From: Candidatus Eiseniibacteriota bacterium
GTDB taxonomy: Bacteria; Eisenbacteria; RBG-16-71-46
DNA length: 21,158 bases
Reading direction: 5' to 3'
Assembly (NCBI GenBank): GCA_013140805.1
Contig: JABFRW010000215.1
Location: forward strand, 1-21,158
Of the stretch, positions 2,735 through 15,231 are shown piece after piece. The position numbers and the translations under genes were made by a program. Positions within the stretch are counted from its first letter, which is position 1, and each line of letters opens with the position of its first letter. The notes beneath the pieces were generated by a model that ran no database searches, was not told where the DNA came from, and worked only from the letters and a program-made list of their open reading frames with translations.

Positions 2735-3855
2735 TGGCGCACTCGTACACGCCGGGGCTGCGCGTGACCTCGCACGCGGAGTTGATCCGCGAACGCCGGC
2801 TCCCGCTCAAGGGGGACGTGCTGGTGCAGGCGGGCGATGCAGTCGAGGCTCGGACGGTGGTCGCGCGGACCGACCTGCCTGGCAACGTGCAGACGGTCAA
2901 TCTCGCCGCCAAGCTGTCGCTCGATCCGGCGAAGGTGCCGTCCGCGCTGGCACGACCGCTCGGGAGCGCGGTGCGAAAGGGCGAAATCATCGCCGAGGCG
3001 AAGGGGCTGTTCGGACTCATGAGCCAGAAGGTCGAGGCGCCGTCCGACGGCACGCTCGAGAGCGTCTCATCGATCACCGGTCAGCTCATTTTTCGCGAAC
3101 CCCCACTTCCGATCGAAGTCGAAGCCTACGTGCGTGGCGTGGTCGACGAAGTGTTGCCAGGCGAAGGCGTGAGAATTCGAACCGAGGGAGCCTTCCTGCA
3201 GGGCATTTTCGGCGTAGGGGGCGAGACGCACGGACCGGTCGCGATGGTCTCGAGCGGCCCCGAAGCGGAGCTCACCGCCGATCTGCTGCGACCCGAGCAT
3301 CGCGATCACGTGGTGGTCGGTGGGTGCTACGTTTCGCACGCGACGCTGATGCGCGCGCGGGATCTCAGAGTGGCGGCGGTGGTGGTCGGTGGCTTCGACG
3401 ATCGCGACCTGCGCCAATTGCTGGGCCGCGACCTCGGAGTCGCGATCACGGGTTCTGAGACGCTCGGATTCACGCTCATCCTCACCGAGGGCTTCGGTCG
3501 CATCGCGATGGCGGCGCGCAGCTGGAATCTGCTGGCCGCCCATGTCGGCGAGCTGGCGTCGGTGAGCGGCGCGACGCAGATTCGCGCGGGCGTGATGCGC
3601 CCCGAAATCATCATTCCCCGCATCGGGGAGATGAGTGCTCCGGCGGCTGAAATGGGGAGCGGATTCGAGCTCGGCGCCCACATCCGGGTGATTCGGGCGC
3701 CCTACTTCGGACGCATCGGTGCCGTGAGCGCCCTGCCCCCCGAGCTTCACGATCTCGACAGCGGAACGCGGGTCCGCGTCATGCACGTGCGCTTCACCGA
3801 CGACGGCAGCGAGGCGCTGGTGCCGCGCGCGAACGTCGAGCTGATCGAGCGATGA
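2735..3855 (+). CDS. Hypothetical protein (373 aa), translationally coupled partner of the ASKHA ATPase
   Basis: ATG 2735 immediately follows stop TGA 2732-2734. SD GGGAGG sits 6 nt upstream. Motifs GDVLVQAGDAV and KGEIIAEAKG suggest a biotinyl/lipoyl-like barrel-sandwich fold at the N-terminus. No family was recognised. Confidence 0.55.
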
Positions 3856-3879
3856 AATGCCGCGTGGGACCCATTTCCG

Positions 3880-3914
3880 TTGACACTGCGGGAAACGTGT
3901 TGCTAGCGTCCGTC
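3880..3914 (+). promoter_or_regulatory. Candidate sigma70-like promoter (TTGACA -18- TAGCGT) upstream of the membrane-protein operon
   Basis: TTGACA at 3880-3885 and a TAnnnT hexamer 18 nt downstream lie in the 113-bp gap before ATG 3969. The -10 element is weak. Confidence 0.2.
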
Positions 3915-3968
3915 CTCAATCGGTTTCTCGGCACGGCTCGACCGGGGTCGTGCGGAGGGTGCAGGACC

Positions 3969-5183
3969 ATGGAGGTTCGTTTGCGACCTTTCCGCCTACC
4001 CGACCCGCTGCGTGTCGTTGCCCTGCTGGCGTGGGTCGTGTGTGCAGTCGCATTCGCCGGGTCCGCCGGAGCACAGGACTCCACCGGGGTCGCGCAAATC
4101 GCCCCGGCAGCGCCGTCCGGCCTCACGGTCTCCGACGTCGCCAACGACGCGGGCCGCCAGCTCGAGCTCAACTGGAAGCGTTCTCCCGACGATCGCACGG
4201 GCTCGACGCTCGTCACCTTCTATCAGATCGAACGTGCCGATCAGCCCGGCGGTCCCTGGGAGGTCGTCGACTCGGTGGCGATGGCGACCGAGTCCTACGT
4301 CGACCAGTCGGTGCGACGCGAGCAGTCCTATTTCTATCGCGTGTCCTCGATCGGGCCGGGCGGGCTGACCCCGGCGCTCAGCGTCACCGGACCGGCGGTC
4401 GCAACCTCGCAGTTCTTCAATACGGCGCGGTGGAGCGTGCTCGTCTACACGCTGGGCTTCTTCGCATTCGTGATGTTCTTCATCGCTCGAGCGCAGAGCG
4501 GACAGAAGACCTTCCTGCGTCGCATTCCGGGCGTGGATGCGATCGAGGAGGCGATCGGTCGCGCGACCGAAATGGGCCGGCCGGTGCTCTACATCCCGGG
4601 CATCCTCGACATCGACGACATCCAGACCGTGGCGGGACTCGTGATTCTCGAGAGCGTCGCCAAGCTGACGGCGCGCTACCAGACCGCGATCCGGGTGCCG
4701 GTGACGTACCCGATCCCGTTCGCGATCGCGCAGGACATGGTGAAGAACGGTTACCTGAGCGCGGGACGCCCCGACGCTCACGATCCCGATGCGGTGCAGT
4801 TCGTTTCGCCGGAACAGTTCGCCTACGTCGCGAACGTGGGCGGCATCATGCTGCGCGATCGGCCGGGCGCCCACATCTTCATGGGTGCGTTTTACGCCGA
4901 ATCGCTCCTGCTGGCGGAGACCGGCTTCCAGACCGGTGCGATCCAGGTCGCGGGCACCGCGAACGTGCATCAGCTGCCGTTCTTCGTCGTGGCCTGCGAC
5001 TACACGCTGATTGGCGAGGAATTGTTCGCTGCCGGCGCCTACCTGAGCGGAGATCCCAAGCTGGTCGGAAGCCTCAAGGCCATCGACCTCATGAAGATCA
5101 CGCTTCTTCTCACCATCCTCGTCGGCTGTGCGCTCGAAACTCTGGGCCACCACGGCTTCACGAATTGGATGGCAACCCAGTAG
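3969..5183 (+). CDS. Secreted/membrane protein with N-terminal signal peptide, FN3-like domain and C-terminal membrane-associated domain (404 aa)
   Basis: ATG 3969 with SD GGAGGG ~10 nt upstream. The signal peptide is LRVVALLAWVVCAVAFAGSAGAQD. The FN3-like segment (PSGLTV...LNWKRS...TFYQIER...WEVV...SYFYRVSSIGPGGLTPALS) ends with the Y-x-R-V motif. Hydrophobic TM segments follow (WSVLVYTLGFFAFVMFFIA and a C-terminal LMKITLLLTILVGCAL). Confidence 0.55.
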   Translation: MEVRLRPFRLPDPLRVVALLAWVVCAVAFAGSAGAQDSTGVAQIAPAAPSGLTVSDVANDAGRQLELNWKRSPDDRTGSTLVTFYQIERADQPGGPWEVVDSVAMATESYVDQSVRREQSYFYRVSSIGPGGLTPALSVTGPAVATSQFFNTARWSVLVYTLGFFAFVMFFIARAQSGQKTFLRRIPGVDAIEEAIGRATEMGRPVLYIPGILDIDDIQTVAGLVILESVAKLTARYQTAIRVPVTYPIPFAIAQDMVKNGYLSAGRPDAHDPDAVQFVSPEQFAYVANVGGIMLRDRPGAHIFMGAFYAESLLLAETGFQTGAIQVAGTANVHQLPFFVVACDYTLIGEELFAAGAYLSGDPKLVGSLKAIDLMKITLLLTILVGCALETLGHHGFTNWMATQ

Positions 5184-7443: not shown

Positions 7444-8235
7444 ATGTTGCGCGATCGCGCGTTGCTCGATGAAGTGGAGAAGTCCGGAGCGATCGTCATG
7501 CGGATCTACCGCTTTGCACCCGCCGGCATCACGCTGGGCGCCCACCAGGACCCGCAACGCGAGCTCGACCTCGAACGCTGTGAGCGAGACGGAGTGCGGT
7601 GGGCGGTGCGTCCGACCGGCGGCCGCGCGATCTTTCACGACGACGAGTGGACCTATGCGTTCGCGGCGCCGATCGATCATCCCGAGTGGGGCGGAGGCTT
7701 GCTCGAAGCGTACGATCGAGTCAGCCGGGTGATCGTGAGTTCGCTGCTGCGCCTCGGAGTACCTGCGAGTCTGGCGCGTTCGGGAGGCGCGCGCGCCGGG
7801 ACGGCATCGCGCGCGGAGGTTGCCGCTCCGTGCTTCACTTCGACGGCCCGCCACGAGATCGTCGTGGCGAATCGCAAGCTGGTCGGCAGCGCCCAGCGCC
7901 GCACCGCGACCGTCTACCTGCAGCAGGGCAGTGTCCTGCTCGGCGAGGGTCATTTGCGCCTGGTCGACTACCTCAATCTCGAACTCGAGGCACGCGAGCG
8001 AGAGCGCCAGGCGCTCACCGGCGCGGCCGTCAGTGCGCGGCGCTGGCTCGGCGAACGTGCACCCCTCGAACGTTGGGCCGAAGCGCTGCGAGCGAGCTTC
8101 TCGGTCCCCGGCGAGCCGGCCTGGAGCGGTGGATCGCGCTCCCGATTGGCCCTCGAAAAACCGCCTTCCTATACTGTGTCAAACGTTGTCCCCGAAATGG
8201 CCCGCCTCCGCACTCCGGGAGAGACCCACTCATGA
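7444..8235 (+). CDS. Lipoate-protein ligase / octanoyltransferase family protein (BPL_LplA_LipB catalytic domain)
   Basis: Motifs ITLGAHQ, RPTGGRAIFHDDEWTYAF and NRKLVGSAQRR (the catalytic Lys region) are typical of the LplA/LipB family. The start may instead be TTG 7408, because RCEAPGDAPEQMLRDRALL aligns with the family N-terminus WRLxxSGxxxxAxNMAxDEAL. Confidence 0.55.
   Translation: MLRDRALLDEVEKSGAIVMRIYRFAPAGITLGAHQDPQRELDLERCERDGVRWAVRPTGGRAIFHDDEWTYAFAAPIDHPEWGGGLLEAYDRVSRVIVSSLLRLGVPASLARSGGARAGTASRAEVAAPCFTSTARHEIVVANRKLVGSAQRRTATVYLQQGSVLLGEGHLRLVDYLNLELEARERERQALTGAAVSARRWLGERAPLERWAEALRASFSVPGEPAWSGGSRSRLALEKPPSYTVSNVVPEMARLRTPGETHS
8146..8175 (+). promoter_or_regulatory. Candidate sigma70 promoter (TTGGCC -18- TATACT) for the ABC transporter operon, lying inside the 3' end of the upstream gene
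   Basis: There is a local AT-rich patch with a near-consensus -10 hexamer TATACT at 8170-8175 and a TTGxxx -35 at 8146-8151. It is ~55 bp upstream of the SBP ATG 8232. Confidence 0.25.
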
Positions 8236-10061
8236 TCATCGCGCGCATTCGAACCGTTTCGCTGCTCGCCCTCGGCCTGCTGTTGCTCGCGCTGGCGACC
8301 GGCTGCGGCGGCAGCACCGGAGTCGCCGCTTCGAGCTACAAGGATCCGTTCCCGCTCCCTCGCGACACCATGCAGTTCGTGGCGAAGGAAGTCGGCCGCC
8401 ACGGCGGGCGCTTCGTGATCGGACAGACCTCGGCGCCCAAGTCTTTCAACGCGATCATGGCGAACGAGACCTCGTCCACCGACCTGACGCAGTTGTTGTT
8501 CGTGGGGCTCAGCGAGTACGACAACGGCCGGCAGGTCGAGATCCCGATGGTGGCCAAGAGCTGGGACCTGAGCGAGGACGGCCGTCGCTGGACCTATCAC
8601 ATGCGGCGCGGCGCGGCGTTCTCGGACGGGCACCCGATCACCTCGGCGGACGTGCTGTTCTCGTTCGAGGTGACCTATGACGAGACGCTCCATCCCTCGA
8701 TGCAGGAACTCATCAAGGTGAATGGAAAGCCGTTTCAGATCAGCGCACCCGATTCGTACACCGTCGTGTTCGACATTGCCGAGCCCTACGTGCTCATGAA
8801 TGCGGTCGTGGGTTCGGTCCGCATCATGCCGAAGCACATCCTGGAGCCCGCGTTTCGCGGCGGCAATTTCGCAGCTGCCTACAACTCGAACACAGCTCCC
8901 GAGAGCCTCGTGACGAGTGGGGCCTGGAAGCTCAAGAGCTTCGTGCCGGGCGAGAAGACGGTGCTGACGCGCAATCCGTACTGGTTCGGCGTCGACTCGA
9001 AAGGGCAGCGCCTCCCGTACCTCGACGAACTGACATTCGTGATCGTGCCGGATCAGAACACCGCATTCCTCAAGTTCCAGGCCGGCGATCTCGACGCGCT
9101 CGACAACGTCAAGCCCGAGGACTACAAGACCTACGAAGACATGCAGAAGTCGCATGACTTCACGCTCCACGAGATCGGACCGAGCCTCAACACGAATTTC
9201 TTCTGGTTCAATCTCAACCGGGTGCACGAGCCGAAGCCGGGCCGCAAGCTGGGCTCGACTTACCTCGACGCGACCAAGTACGCCTGGTTCAGCGACGTGC
9301 GCTTCCGGCGCGCGGTGTCGATGGGGATCGATCGCGAAGCGATGATCCGCGGAGTGTTCTTCGGAGACGCGGTCAAGAACTGGGCGACGTACACCGCCGG
9401 CAACAAGCTGTGGTACGACCCGACCATCACGGGCGCCGACTACGATCCCGAAGGCGCGAAGCGGCTGCTCGCGGAGGCCGGCTTCAAGGATCGCGACGGC
9501 GACGGCGTGCTCGAGGACGCGAAGGGCCACACCGTTTCATTCACGATCAAGACGAACGGCGACAACGTGACGCGCGTGCAGATGGCGAACTTCATCAAGG
9601 ACGACCTGGCGAAGATCGGCATCAAGTGCATTCCGACCCCGGTCGACTTCAACACCTTGATCACGAATCTGCGCCAGGACTTCCAGTACGAAGCCTTGCT
9701 TCTGGGGCTGTCTTCCGCGGTACCGCCGGACCCGGGCATGGGGCAGAACGTGTTCCGCTCGAGCGGTCTCACGCACTACTGGAACATCAAGCAGCCCCGG
9801 CCCGAGACGCCCCAGGAGGTCGAGATCGATCGCCTGATCGGCGAGAATGTCGGGACCTTCGACATGGCGATCCGCAAGGCCACGCTCCATCAGATCTTCG
9901 AGATCTGGAATCGCGAGGTCTACACGGTGTGGCTTCCGACTGTGATCATGAAGCTCCCGGTGAGCAATCGCTTCGGTAACACCGAGCCGGTGCCGATTCC
10001 GCATCGCATCCTGTGGAACATCGACCGGGTGTTCGTGAAGTCGCCCGGTCGACCGGCGTGA
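8232..10061 (+). CDS. ABC transporter substrate-binding lipoprotein, family 5 (peptide/oligopeptide/nickel type), 609 aa
   Basis: ATG 8232 forms an ATGA overlap with the upstream stop. The lipoprotein signal is LLALGLLLLALATGC. Length and motifs fit SBP_bac_5. It is followed by cognate permease and ATPase genes. Confidence 0.8.
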   Translation: MIIARIRTVSLLALGLLLLALATGCGGSTGVAASSYKDPFPLPRDTMQFVAKEVGRHGGRFVIGQTSAPKSFNAIMANETSSTDLTQLLFVGLSEYDNGRQVEIPMVAKSWDLSEDGRRWTYHMRRGAAFSDGHPITSADVLFSFEVTYDETLHPSMQELIKVNGKPFQISAPDSYTVVFDIAEPYVLMNAVVGSVRIMPKHILEPAFRGGNFAAAYNSNTAPESLVTSGAWKLKSFVPGEKTVLTRNPYWFGVDSKGQRLPYLDELTFVIVPDQNTAFLKFQAGDLDALDNVKPEDYKTYEDMQKSHDFTLHEIGPSLNTNFFWFNLNRVHEPKPGRKLGSTYLDATKYAWFSDVRFRRAVSMGIDREAMIRGVFFGDAVKNWATYTAGNKLWYDPTITGADYDPEGAKRLLAEAGFKDRDGDGVLEDAKGHTVSFTIKTNGDNVTRVQMANFIKDDLAKIGIKCIPTPVDFNTLITNLRQDFQYEALLLGLSSAVPPDPGMGQNVFRSSGLTHYWNIKQPRPETPQEVEIDRLIGENVGTFDMAIRKATLHQIFEIWNREVYTVWLPTVIMKLPVSNRFGNTEPVPIPHRILWNIDRVFVKSPGRPA

Positions 10062-12265: not shown

Positions 12266-14311
<2,046 letters not shown>

Positions 14312-14840
14312 CACCCCGGCCGCTTCGAGCGATCGCGAGCGACTTTCCCCATCCATGCCGAATGCTCGGGCGAATTGACCCCCTGCGCGAGACCGGGAAC
14401 TACAATCGCCCGACGCTGGATCTACTCCACTGGCTGAGATCACGAAGGCAATGATCTGCAAAGCAACGAATTGCGCGGACGGGGTCGAGCTGAAGTGCTG
14501 GCTTCGAGCAGCGTGGCACCTGGCTTGCGGTGTTAGTTCCTCGAACGCCGATCCGGCGGTTGCGGACCGGCAACGACATCGCAACACCAGGTTGTTCCCT
14601 GTTCGACTCGTGATTGGCCGGCTGTGGGCTGATCCCCCTATCGCGAGCGAAGGAGTCTTACGGACCGGTACACGGTCGATACGGGGAACTTTTTAGGGCT
14701 CCGCCAGCGGCACATGCCTCCCAGCTAGACACCCGAGGCCGCAGCGGAGCCCATGACTTTTCGTCCGGAGTTCGTCGAGGTGCGTGTTCGTTCCGCGCCT
14801 CCGATGTCCGCGGTCGCTCGAGACCTCCGGCTCTCGCGCG

Positions 14841-14869
14841 TTGATTCGCTCCGCAAGCCCTGTTAGCTT
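14841..14869 (+). promoter_or_regulatory. Candidate sigma70 promoter (TTGATT -17- TAGCTT) ~80 bp upstream of the BMC operon
   Basis: The hexamers at 14841-14846 and 14864-14869 have an exact 17-nt spacer. This is the only good match in the leader close to the first BMC-H start. Confidence 0.3.
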
Positions 14870-14949
14870 CGCAGCTTCCATGGGATCCGGTGCGGCTCGG
14901 CCGGGCCGCCTTTCGGGTCGCACCCTTGCGGAGAGCGAGCGAACCTCAC

Positions 14950-15231
14950 GTGCCACGCGAAGCCCTGGGACTCATCGAGACCCGTGGGCTGATCGCCGCC
15001 ATCGAGGCGGCGGACGCGATGTGCAAGACGGCGTCGGTCCGTCTGGTTCGCTACGAGAAGATCTCCGGAGCGCTCGTGACCGTCTGCATTCGGGGCCCGG
15101 TGGCTGACGTCGAATCCGCGGTGGAGGCCGGCGCGCGAGCGGCGGCGCGGTTGGGAGCGGTCGTCGCCCACCACGTCATTCCGGCACCCGATCCGCAACT
15201 CGAAGACCGACTCGCGGGACCCGCGCGCTGA
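14950..15231 (+). CDS. BMC-H shell protein (Pfam00936 single BMC domain), divergent paralog
   Basis: [58 protein letters not shown] is a canonical BMC-domain sequence. The start is chosen as GTG 14950 to give the usual ~93-aa size. In-frame ATG 14890 would add a 20-aa extension. Confidence 0.85.

Follow-up and report, generated by a model that had tools for sequence, protein, structure and literature searches.

A conserved structured RNA and two promoter motifs in the spacer before an aldehyde-dehydrogenase-type microcompartment operon of Candidatus Eisenbacteria

The locus and its spacer

A stretch of 21,158 nucleotides from contig JABFRW010000215.1 of Candidatus Eiseniibacteriota bacterium (assembly GCA_013140805.1), hereafter the window, was analyzed for the content of the long spacer that separates a peptide transporter operon from a bacterial microcompartment (BMC) operon, in which we found a conserved structured RNA with a putative sigma-54 promoter of its own. 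The transporter is of the Opp-type ATP-binding cassette (ABC) family and is encoded on the + strand by genes for a family-5 binding protein, two permeases and two ATPases that end at 14311, the TAG stop codon of the OppF-like ABC ATPase occupying 14309-14311. The first BMC-H gene starts with a GTG codon at 14950 (PF00936, E 8e-29) and is followed by a second BMC-H, a BMC-P, an aldehyde dehydrogenase, a BMC-T and two further BMC-P genes up to 18428 (PF00936, PF03319 and PF00171). This operon is without pduL and without a signature enzyme, and a gene for HU and then an RNase II/R-like gene are located 3' of it. The aldehyde dehydrogenase is 70-80% identical to those of about 50 loci in Candidatus Eisenbacteria metagenome-assembled genomes, in which the gene order OppD-OppF-spacer-BMC-H-BMC-H-BMC-P-aldehyde dehydrogenase is kept.

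The spacer spans 14312-14949 and is exactly 638 bp long, in agreement with the first-pass annotation of the window, which had described a non-coding spacer of about 640 bp between the two operons. No codon-position GC periodicity was observed over 14320-14700, compared with a third-position GC content (GC3) of 0.8-0.95 in the flanking genes, and none of the seven open reading frames (ORFs) overlapping the spacer has a Pfam match at E<=1. A faint codon-position GC bias was seen for the minus-strand ORF over 14700-14950. The spacer ORFs were rejected as coding since they have neither a Pfam match nor a GC3 signal and the conservation is equal in six frames. The pronounced drop in GC content that had been reported against a window of about 69% was found to be real in direction and small in extent, as the spacer has 63.8% GC and the window 66.3%; the minimum is 57% in 120-nt segments (14350-14469) and 60% in 200-nt segments. 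The orthologous spacers are 360-1190 bp long with the GC content of their own locus or genome, and it is therefore the length and not a low GC content that is the conserved property. This genome-level GC content prompted a search for a gene hidden in the orthologous spacers, which was rejected as their long ORFs are not shared; no ORF is common to them.

A conserved RNA between two promoter motifs

Only a single block, at about 14590-14760, is alignable among the window and 45 orthologous spacers, with 80-94% identity. Conservation of the spacer in related genomes, which had been set as a test by the first-pass annotation, was thus found for this block and for the promoters described below, and the rest of the spacer is unalignable. 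The 96-nt core of the block, which we describe as a rod hairpin (Table 1), has a mean nucleotide identity of 87% to the window, compared with 71-82% for the DNA of OppD, OppF, BMC-H1, BMC-H2, BMC-P and the aldehyde dehydrogenase, and is the most conserved DNA of the neighbourhood. Its apical 32-mer (GGGCUGAUCCCCCUAUCGCGAGCGAAGGAGUC, 14626-14657) is letter-identical in about 30 of 45 genomes. The block scores alike in all six tblastx frames and contains single-base indels. Loci as a rule carry a single copy, whose strand is always that of the operon. Two covariance models built for the element score the window at 160.7 bits (R1, 14586-14757) and 112.5 bits (R2, 14584-14699), and the RNA and both promoters are conserved in about 50 Candidatus Eisenbacteria genome loci and in 108 metagenome instances. 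We are nearly certain that a conserved structured RNA element exists in the spacer; both this element (about 14540-14762) and the sigma-54 promoter motif in front of it (14514-14528) had been missed in the first-pass annotation.

Table 1. Features of the spacer and of the start of the microcompartment operon in the window
Feature	Position	Strand	Remarks
Upstream part of the spacer	14312-14513	+	Lowest GC (57-62%); unalignable between relatives by blastn or nhmmer
Putative sigma-54-type promoter	14514-14528	+	TGGCAC (-24), N5, TTGC (-12); predicted start near 14540
Predicted 5' leader of the RNA	14540-14593	+	Variable predicted hairpins, then an A-rich motif
Core rod hairpin, 96 nt	14594-14689	+	GUUCCCUG...CGGGGAAC; holds the invariant CGUG/CACG helix and the apical 32-mer
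3' hairpin	14696-14752	+	GGGCUCCGC (14696-14704) pairs with GCGGAGCCC (14744-14752); predicted in minimum free energy and centroid structures
Conserved AUGA, then U-run (AUGACUUUUCG)	14753-14763	+	GCCCAUGA, then UUU(U), in the clade of the window
Sigma-70-type promoter of the BMC operon	14841-14869	+	-35 TTGATT, 17-nt spacer, extended -10 TGtTAGCTT
Short 5' untranslated region of the BMC operon, about 75 nt	14876-14949	+	Ribosome-binding site GGAGAG at 14930-14935; start predicted from the -10 element
BMC-H, first gene of the operon	14950-15231	+	PF00936

RNAalifold on 44 instances predicted the rod hairpin (14594-14689) and a second hairpin (14696-14752) with 34 pairs, nine of them compensatory. 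In a model-based alignment of 48 instances 98.6% of the cells are paired, and double (compensatory) changes were found in 14 of the 34 pairs as against 5.1 +/- 1.3 in shuffles, none of 500 shuffles reaching 14; control pairs slid by one to three columns gave 2-8 pairs with double changes. These are the compensatory changes for which the first-pass annotation had proposed to align orthologous spacers. A second alignment covers 49 rods of four subtypes or more, distinguished by their apical 17-24 nt; it gave 25 pairs of which 11 are compensatory, and two neighbouring pairs alternate almost evenly between G-C/A-U and U-A/G-C. The apical helices are invariant and hence uninformative on pairing. 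Several U-G and G-U pairs are also invariant, and the RNA is read from the + strand because these pairs would be C-A mismatches on the opposite strand. Folding of the window transcript gave z = -2.65 relative to shuffles.

The GAUC(C) bulge of the rod measures 4-6 nt and its apex 17-24 nt. The rod is preceded in all subtypes by the A-rich leader motif, which has the consensus GACAACYGAAUA and reads GACAUCGCAACA in the window (14575-14586). In the 3' hairpin (helix 7 of the model) four of the five modelled pairs covary, with the combinations GGGCCCCG/CGGGGCCC and GGGCCCUG/CAGGGCCC next to GGGCUCCG/CGGAGCCC of the window.

The putative sigma-54 promoter is the sole match to TGGCAYN5TTGC on both strands of the 21 kb, where 0.07 matches are expected. 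GGCAY-N5-TTGC was found 35-120 nt 5' of the rod in 47 of the 49 genome-derived instances, the other two having one-base variants, and the motif also occurs in most of the metagenome instances of all subtypes, the divergent ones included. The promoter geometry alone would place the 5' end of the RNA near 14540, and a structured RNA of about 220 nt (about 14540-14762) would be made from this promoter. The region upstream of the -24 element is presumed to serve as a site for the sigma-54 activator or for DNA bending; no activator site shared among the relatives was found in it, only clade-specific motifs. At 30-55 nt 5' of the -24 element, an inverted repeat CGCATTCGCAGCGACATGCG was observed in one clade and TGTAACAC in another, and neither occurs in the window (loci with these motifs: L020, L029, L038, L039, L042, L048, L051; L105, L145, L160, L161). 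These are candidate activator or IHF sites. Further upstream, many relatives (e.g., L003, L005, L010 and L016) have a GGGGGAAAGCCCCC-type hairpin within the first ~40 nt past the OppF stop codon, which is probably the terminator of the opp operon; the version in the window is weak and lies near 14369-14384.

The second promoter belongs to the operon. The motif cgTTGACC-N17-ccTGnTAGCGT (or TAGCTT) was found 75-100 nt 5' of BMC-H1 in all 46 loci, once per locus and always in that place, which supports the sigma70 promoter that the first-pass annotation had placed at 14841-14869 despite the fact that TTGATT-17-TAGCTT of the window fails a generic consensus scan. It sits about 80 nt downstream of the RNA, and where genes are inserted between the two (L013 and L081) it stays with BMC-H and not with the RNA. 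The 5' untranslated region (5'UTR) behind it differs between clades and is poorly conserved, with no conserved RNA motif across clades and no Rfam match. An imitation of the -10 region of this promoter by the RNA apex was considered and rejected, as the best ungapped matches of 7-9 out of 12 (z -1.3 to 2.0) are not significant. The operon-type extended -10 promoter motif has one other exact match in the window, at 3880-3909 (TTGACACTGCGGGAAACGTGTTGCTAGCGT; 0.01 expected). It falls just within ORF 3852-5183 (DUF6754), and the start of this gene may therefore be further downstream.

The U-run at 14753-14763 is probably the 3' end or a weak intrinsic terminator of the RNA in the clade of the window. 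In another clade an extra GC hairpin of 12-17 bp with a T-rich tail was found directly past the RNA in 14 of 46 loci, compared with 3.8% of shuffles; the sequence of this hairpin varies from locus to locus and has no complementarity to the conserved RNA. The arrangement downstream in L081 is rod-U6-hairpin-U5. In the low-GC subtype the rod is lengthened to about 19 closing pairs and followed by AUUUGUNUUU, 20-40 nt before the -35 element of the pduL-BMC promoter.

Known RNAs were searched with Rfam 15 at gathering thresholds on the whole window and with relaxed scans of the spacer and 29 related loci, entered as 31 sources since some were scanned twice. The covariance-model scan that the first-pass annotation had recommended returned no family at threshold on the window or its relatives. 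Neither a riboswitch nor any described aptamer class was matched at gathering or relaxed thresholds, a sub-threshold 6S RNA match being the only one to recur, and no tRNA or tmRNA genes were found in the window. Three options had been raised for the spacer, namely a long structured 5'UTR, a riboswitch and a small RNA. The last gains support from an RNA that is conserved above its flanking genes, strand-specific and covarying in its pairs. The other two are unsupported because the RNA precedes the operon promoter, which leaves a 5'UTR of only about 75 nt, and has its own putative sigma-54 promoter.

Linkage to the microcompartment operon and variant loci

The first set of loci was retrieved via the aldehyde dehydrogenase and is hence biased. 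An RNA-first set was therefore considered, in which metagenome contigs were searched by the RNA pattern alone and 108 instances were confirmed by the covariance models; linkage was counted in the 81 contigs that extend 700 nt or more past the RNA. In 69 of these 81 informative contigs the BMC operon comes first downstream, beginning with BMC-H or pduL, BMC-H following within 700 nt in 54 and with a larger gap in four, and pduL followed by BMC-H in 11. The first downstream gene encodes a large secreted FlgD_ig-domain protein in seven contigs, with BMC genes further downstream in two of the seven, a secreted S8 protease in three, and is unrecognised in two. In the contigs that begin with pduL the upstream gene is RACo-like instead of Opp; likewise, in the low-GC relatives L127, L092 and L156 the operon opens with pduL and an Fe-S protein of the RACo-like type replaces Opp upstream. 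The link to BMC genes holds with either upstream neighbour, and the RNA is therefore tied to the start of the operon and not to Opp.

This link is strong but not obligatory. In the three S8-protease contigs (L129, L135 and L149) the OppF-RNA arrangement is kept and the RNA is intact (1617-1789, 559-727 and 108-281, respectively, in the oriented contigs), and no BMC genes are present. The gene after the RNA encodes a secreted Peptidase_S8 protein with a C-terminal FlgD_ig domain, and in L129 HU comes next, as it does after the operon of the window. The microcompartment operon appears to have been swapped for the protease in these contigs. In L034, two full RNA copies occur in tandem (8116-8290 and 8641-8825), each with its own GGCAC-N5-TTGC promoter motif. 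No homologues of the RNA were found beside related microcompartment loci of Calditrichia, Acidobacteriota, Verrucomicrobiota, Anaerolineae and Gemmatimonadota.

Several further arrangements were observed. Weak second matches to the RNA lie downstream of the main copy in L010 (4795-4923), L097 and L126. In L013 an RNA copy at the contig edge (1-120) precedes two ORFs (1003 aa and 448 aa) and a duplicate of the 3' half alone (4655-4805), with the BMC promoter (6019) and then BMC-H (6111) behind it; an insertion of about 4.5 kb appears to have duplicated this half of the RNA gene, in the manner of elements that integrate at tRNA or tmRNA genes. One subtype of the RNA is followed by a gene for a secreted FlgD_ig protein of about 1090 aa, which begins 70-95 nt past the rod without a recognisable promoter in between (L078, 5967-9239; L081, 5032-8331; L111, L142, L130, L185 and L192), the BMC genes being 3-5 kb further on. 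Two tRNA genes are located a few hundred bases 5' of the RNA in subtype-C contigs (L111, 2710-2782 and 2964-3047; L142, 767-850 and 1013-1085). Finally, six contigs (L006, L010, L024, L035, L045 and L048) are labelled as Saccharimonadaceae, Limnocylindria, Udaeobacter, Methylomirabilota, Polyangiaceae or Verrucomicrobiia. Five of them have the Eisenbacteria-type gene order and the RNA, L045 ends at the aldehyde dehydrogenase (75% identical), and all six are probably mis-binned.

Interpretation and comparison with known RNAs

With confidence somewhat better than even, we read the element as a small RNA that is free-standing and sigma-54-dependent, next to an operon with its own promoter. Transcription from the sigma-54 promoter at 14514-14528 would yield a stand-alone transcript of about 220 nt made up of the leader, the rod, the 3' hairpin and the U-run, and the sigma-70-type extended -10 promoter at 14841-14869 would independently drive the microcompartment operon with its 5'UTR of about 75 nt. 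The RNA would most likely be regulatory and be made only once an unlinked sigma-54 activator is switched on. Its invariant apex and bulge would probably be the active parts, which would either bind a protein or base-pair with targets that lie elsewhere, and the RNA may have been kept by the operon since both would serve one nutritional response that comprises peptide uptake, secreted proteases and aldehyde-handling microcompartments. A stand-alone small RNA is favoured because the element has its own promoter motif and freely evolving terminators, because a conserved operon promoter intervenes before the microcompartment genes, and because each of the tandem copies in L034 has its own promoter and the RNA survives replacement of the operon.

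A number of observations weigh against this reading. Transcription, the ends of the RNA and its sigma-54 dependence are all deduced from sequence motifs. Neither the window nor the 10 kb to either side at 80 related loci contain a gene for an AAA+ sigma-54 activator, in line with the first-pass annotation, which had found no regulator gene. The window has just the hairpin and AUGACUUUU, with UUUU four bases past the hairpin, and a generic terminator scan finds no canonical terminator in it; read-through into the operon is therefore possible. No target of the RNA was identified: pairing of the apex with the 5'UTR of BMC-H was tried and rejected, being no better than in shuffled controls (mean z -0.35; duplexfold is unreliable in GC-rich sequence). 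Finally, in five or more different contexts the RNA invariably has the orientation of the gene downstream, which fits a leader as well, and in subtype C (L078, L082, L110 and L142) the rod and the gene for the large secreted protein are just 70-95 nt apart, and no promoter is recognisable in that gap.

These last points bear on the main alternative, a cis-acting leader or attenuator, which we regard as possible and rather doubtful. Sigma-54 transcripts would in this case run through the rod into the BMC operon, the protease or the large secreted protein, the rod would be a terminator or processing element controlled by a ligand or a protein, and the sigma-70-type promoter would give only basal expression of the operon. 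Like riboswitch and attenuator leaders, the element is a conserved structured RNA directly 5' of the next gene and on its strand, in every context observed, with a U-tract after a long hairpin. Its invariant bulge and loop nucleotides (GAUC and CGUG/CACG) resemble a specific recognition surface, and in subtype B the U-rich tail of the rod ends about 20-40 nt before the -35 element of the pduL-BMC promoter. The lack of a canonical terminator in the window and the short gap of subtype C point the same way. However, in every BMC-linked locus a conserved independent promoter separates the operon from the RNA, riboswitch families give no match, and each tandem copy in L034 has a promoter of its own. 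Moreover, the strong extra terminators found at many loci vary freely and have no alternative-pairing partner in the RNA, unlike the expression platform of a riboswitch, and the RNA persists before unrelated genes.

Of the Rfam families, 6S RNA (RF00013) alone touches the element; it matched the rod in the relaxed scans of five distant-subtype instances with 39.7, 37.4, 26.7, 26.7 and 23.3 bits (best E = 6.7e-6). The gathering score of 46.4 was not reached, and the window and the other close-type loci tested gave no 6S match at E<=10. The alignments cover the closing and internal stems, where they match most of the strongly conserved residues, and delete 83-91 central positions of the model, a stretch taken to be the central bubble and the terminal stem. 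Both the rod shape and the stems (UCCCUG...GUUCGU...GGGCUGAU / ...GUUUCA...ACGGCA...GGGGA) are similar to those of 6S RNA. A conceivable and in our view unlikely reading is that of a 'half-6S' RNA: the element would descend from the closing-stem half of 6S, or mimic it by convergence, having lost the bubble and the terminal stem, and it would be made only under sigma-54 activation and bind RNA polymerase or a sigma/anti-sigma-type factor. If true, such an RNA would link a sigma-54 signal to promoters of the sigma-70 type, the microcompartment promoter 80-200 nt downstream among them, and one sigma regulon would thereby adjust another in a way not described before.

That the element is the true 6S RNA (SsrS) of the lineage, a promoter mimic that sequesters the housekeeping RNA polymerase holoenzyme, is very unlikely. 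The distant subtype is about 150 nt long, near the size range of 6S RNA, and it is here that the matches fall exactly on the rod and include most of the highly conserved closing-stem residues. However, the element has no mimic of an open promoter, as both the fold and the covariation support a continuous rod with a bulge of 4-6 nt and an apex of 17-24 nt; it also differs in its sigma-54 promoter motif and in the extra 3' hairpin of the window's clade. We know of no sigma-54-driven 6S gene, and our literature search yielded no paper on such a gene nor one linking sigma-54, a small RNA and microcompartments. The rod model R2, run with filters off on E. coli ssrS (L202 984-1166), gave a best overlapping match of 3.5 bits (E 1.7), a weak test as the long apical insertion is heavily penalised. 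According to truncation work on B. subtilis 6S-1, the functional core consists of the central bubble and two short arms (PMC8876501), and the stretch taken to hold the bubble is skipped in the alignments to the element. The element was therefore not filed as 6S RNA, which by resemblance would be its closest known relative.

It is extremely improbable that the conservation is not at the level of RNA and reflects a small protein gene (14451-14696 on the + strand or 14693-14956 on the - strand), a double-stranded DNA binding site or a repeat: ORFs of 81 and 87 aa do overlap the region, the minus-strand one with its faint GC bias, but they have no Pfam match, the tblastx signal is equal in six frames and confined to the RNA block, single-base indels occur within it, the conserved positions follow the rules of pairing, G-U wobbles included, on a single strand, the minus-strand ORF lies in a region that is unconserved apart from the promoter motif, and a dispersed repeat would not be expected as one copy per locus at a syntenic site.

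To our knowledge, the control of microcompartment operons is understood for a few model systems and not for the aldehyde-dehydrogenase type of uncultured soil phyla. Here, two putative promoters of such an operon region were identified from sequence alone, together with a previously uncatalogued RNA family that is absent from Rfam 15. The family appears to be restricted to Candidatus Eisenbacteria and close relatives and to be wired to sigma-54, and it stays by the operon start while the upstream genes change. The defined RNA, the promoter pair and the covariance model provide a handle on regulation in the Eisenbacteria phylum, and should the resemblance to the 6S closing stem be functional, it would bear on the evolution of polymerase-binding RNAs.

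Small RNAs within microcompartment loci have precedents in EutX and Rli55, the riboswitch-containing small RNAs of the ethanolamine-utilisation loci of Enterococcus and Listeria (PMC5821096). The element resembles them as a putative small RNA gene within a microcompartment locus, in the orientation of the operon, and plausibly ties operon expression to a signal. It differs from them in that no cobalamin or other riboswitch is matched, no paired ANTAR-binding hexaloop hairpins were seen when the alignment was checked by eye, the promoter is of another type, and the microcompartment contains an aldehyde dehydrogenase with or without PduL and no ethanolamine lyase.

Sigma-54-dependent small RNAs include GlmY/GlmZ of enterobacteria, Qrr of Vibrio, and CrcZ/CrcY and NrsZ of Pseudomonas. 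The element is related to none of these by sequence or Rfam family, and unlike CrcZ and CsrB it is without repeated protein-binding motifs. It is nevertheless similar to them in being a structured, presumably non-coding RNA behind a -24/-12 promoter motif, which would be made as a discrete transcript and would need a distant activator, and its tandem duplication in L034 is likewise seen in Qrr and CrcZ/CrcY. The element also differs from the known sigma-54-dependent small RNAs in that it comes from a candidate phylum and directly precedes a microcompartment operon.

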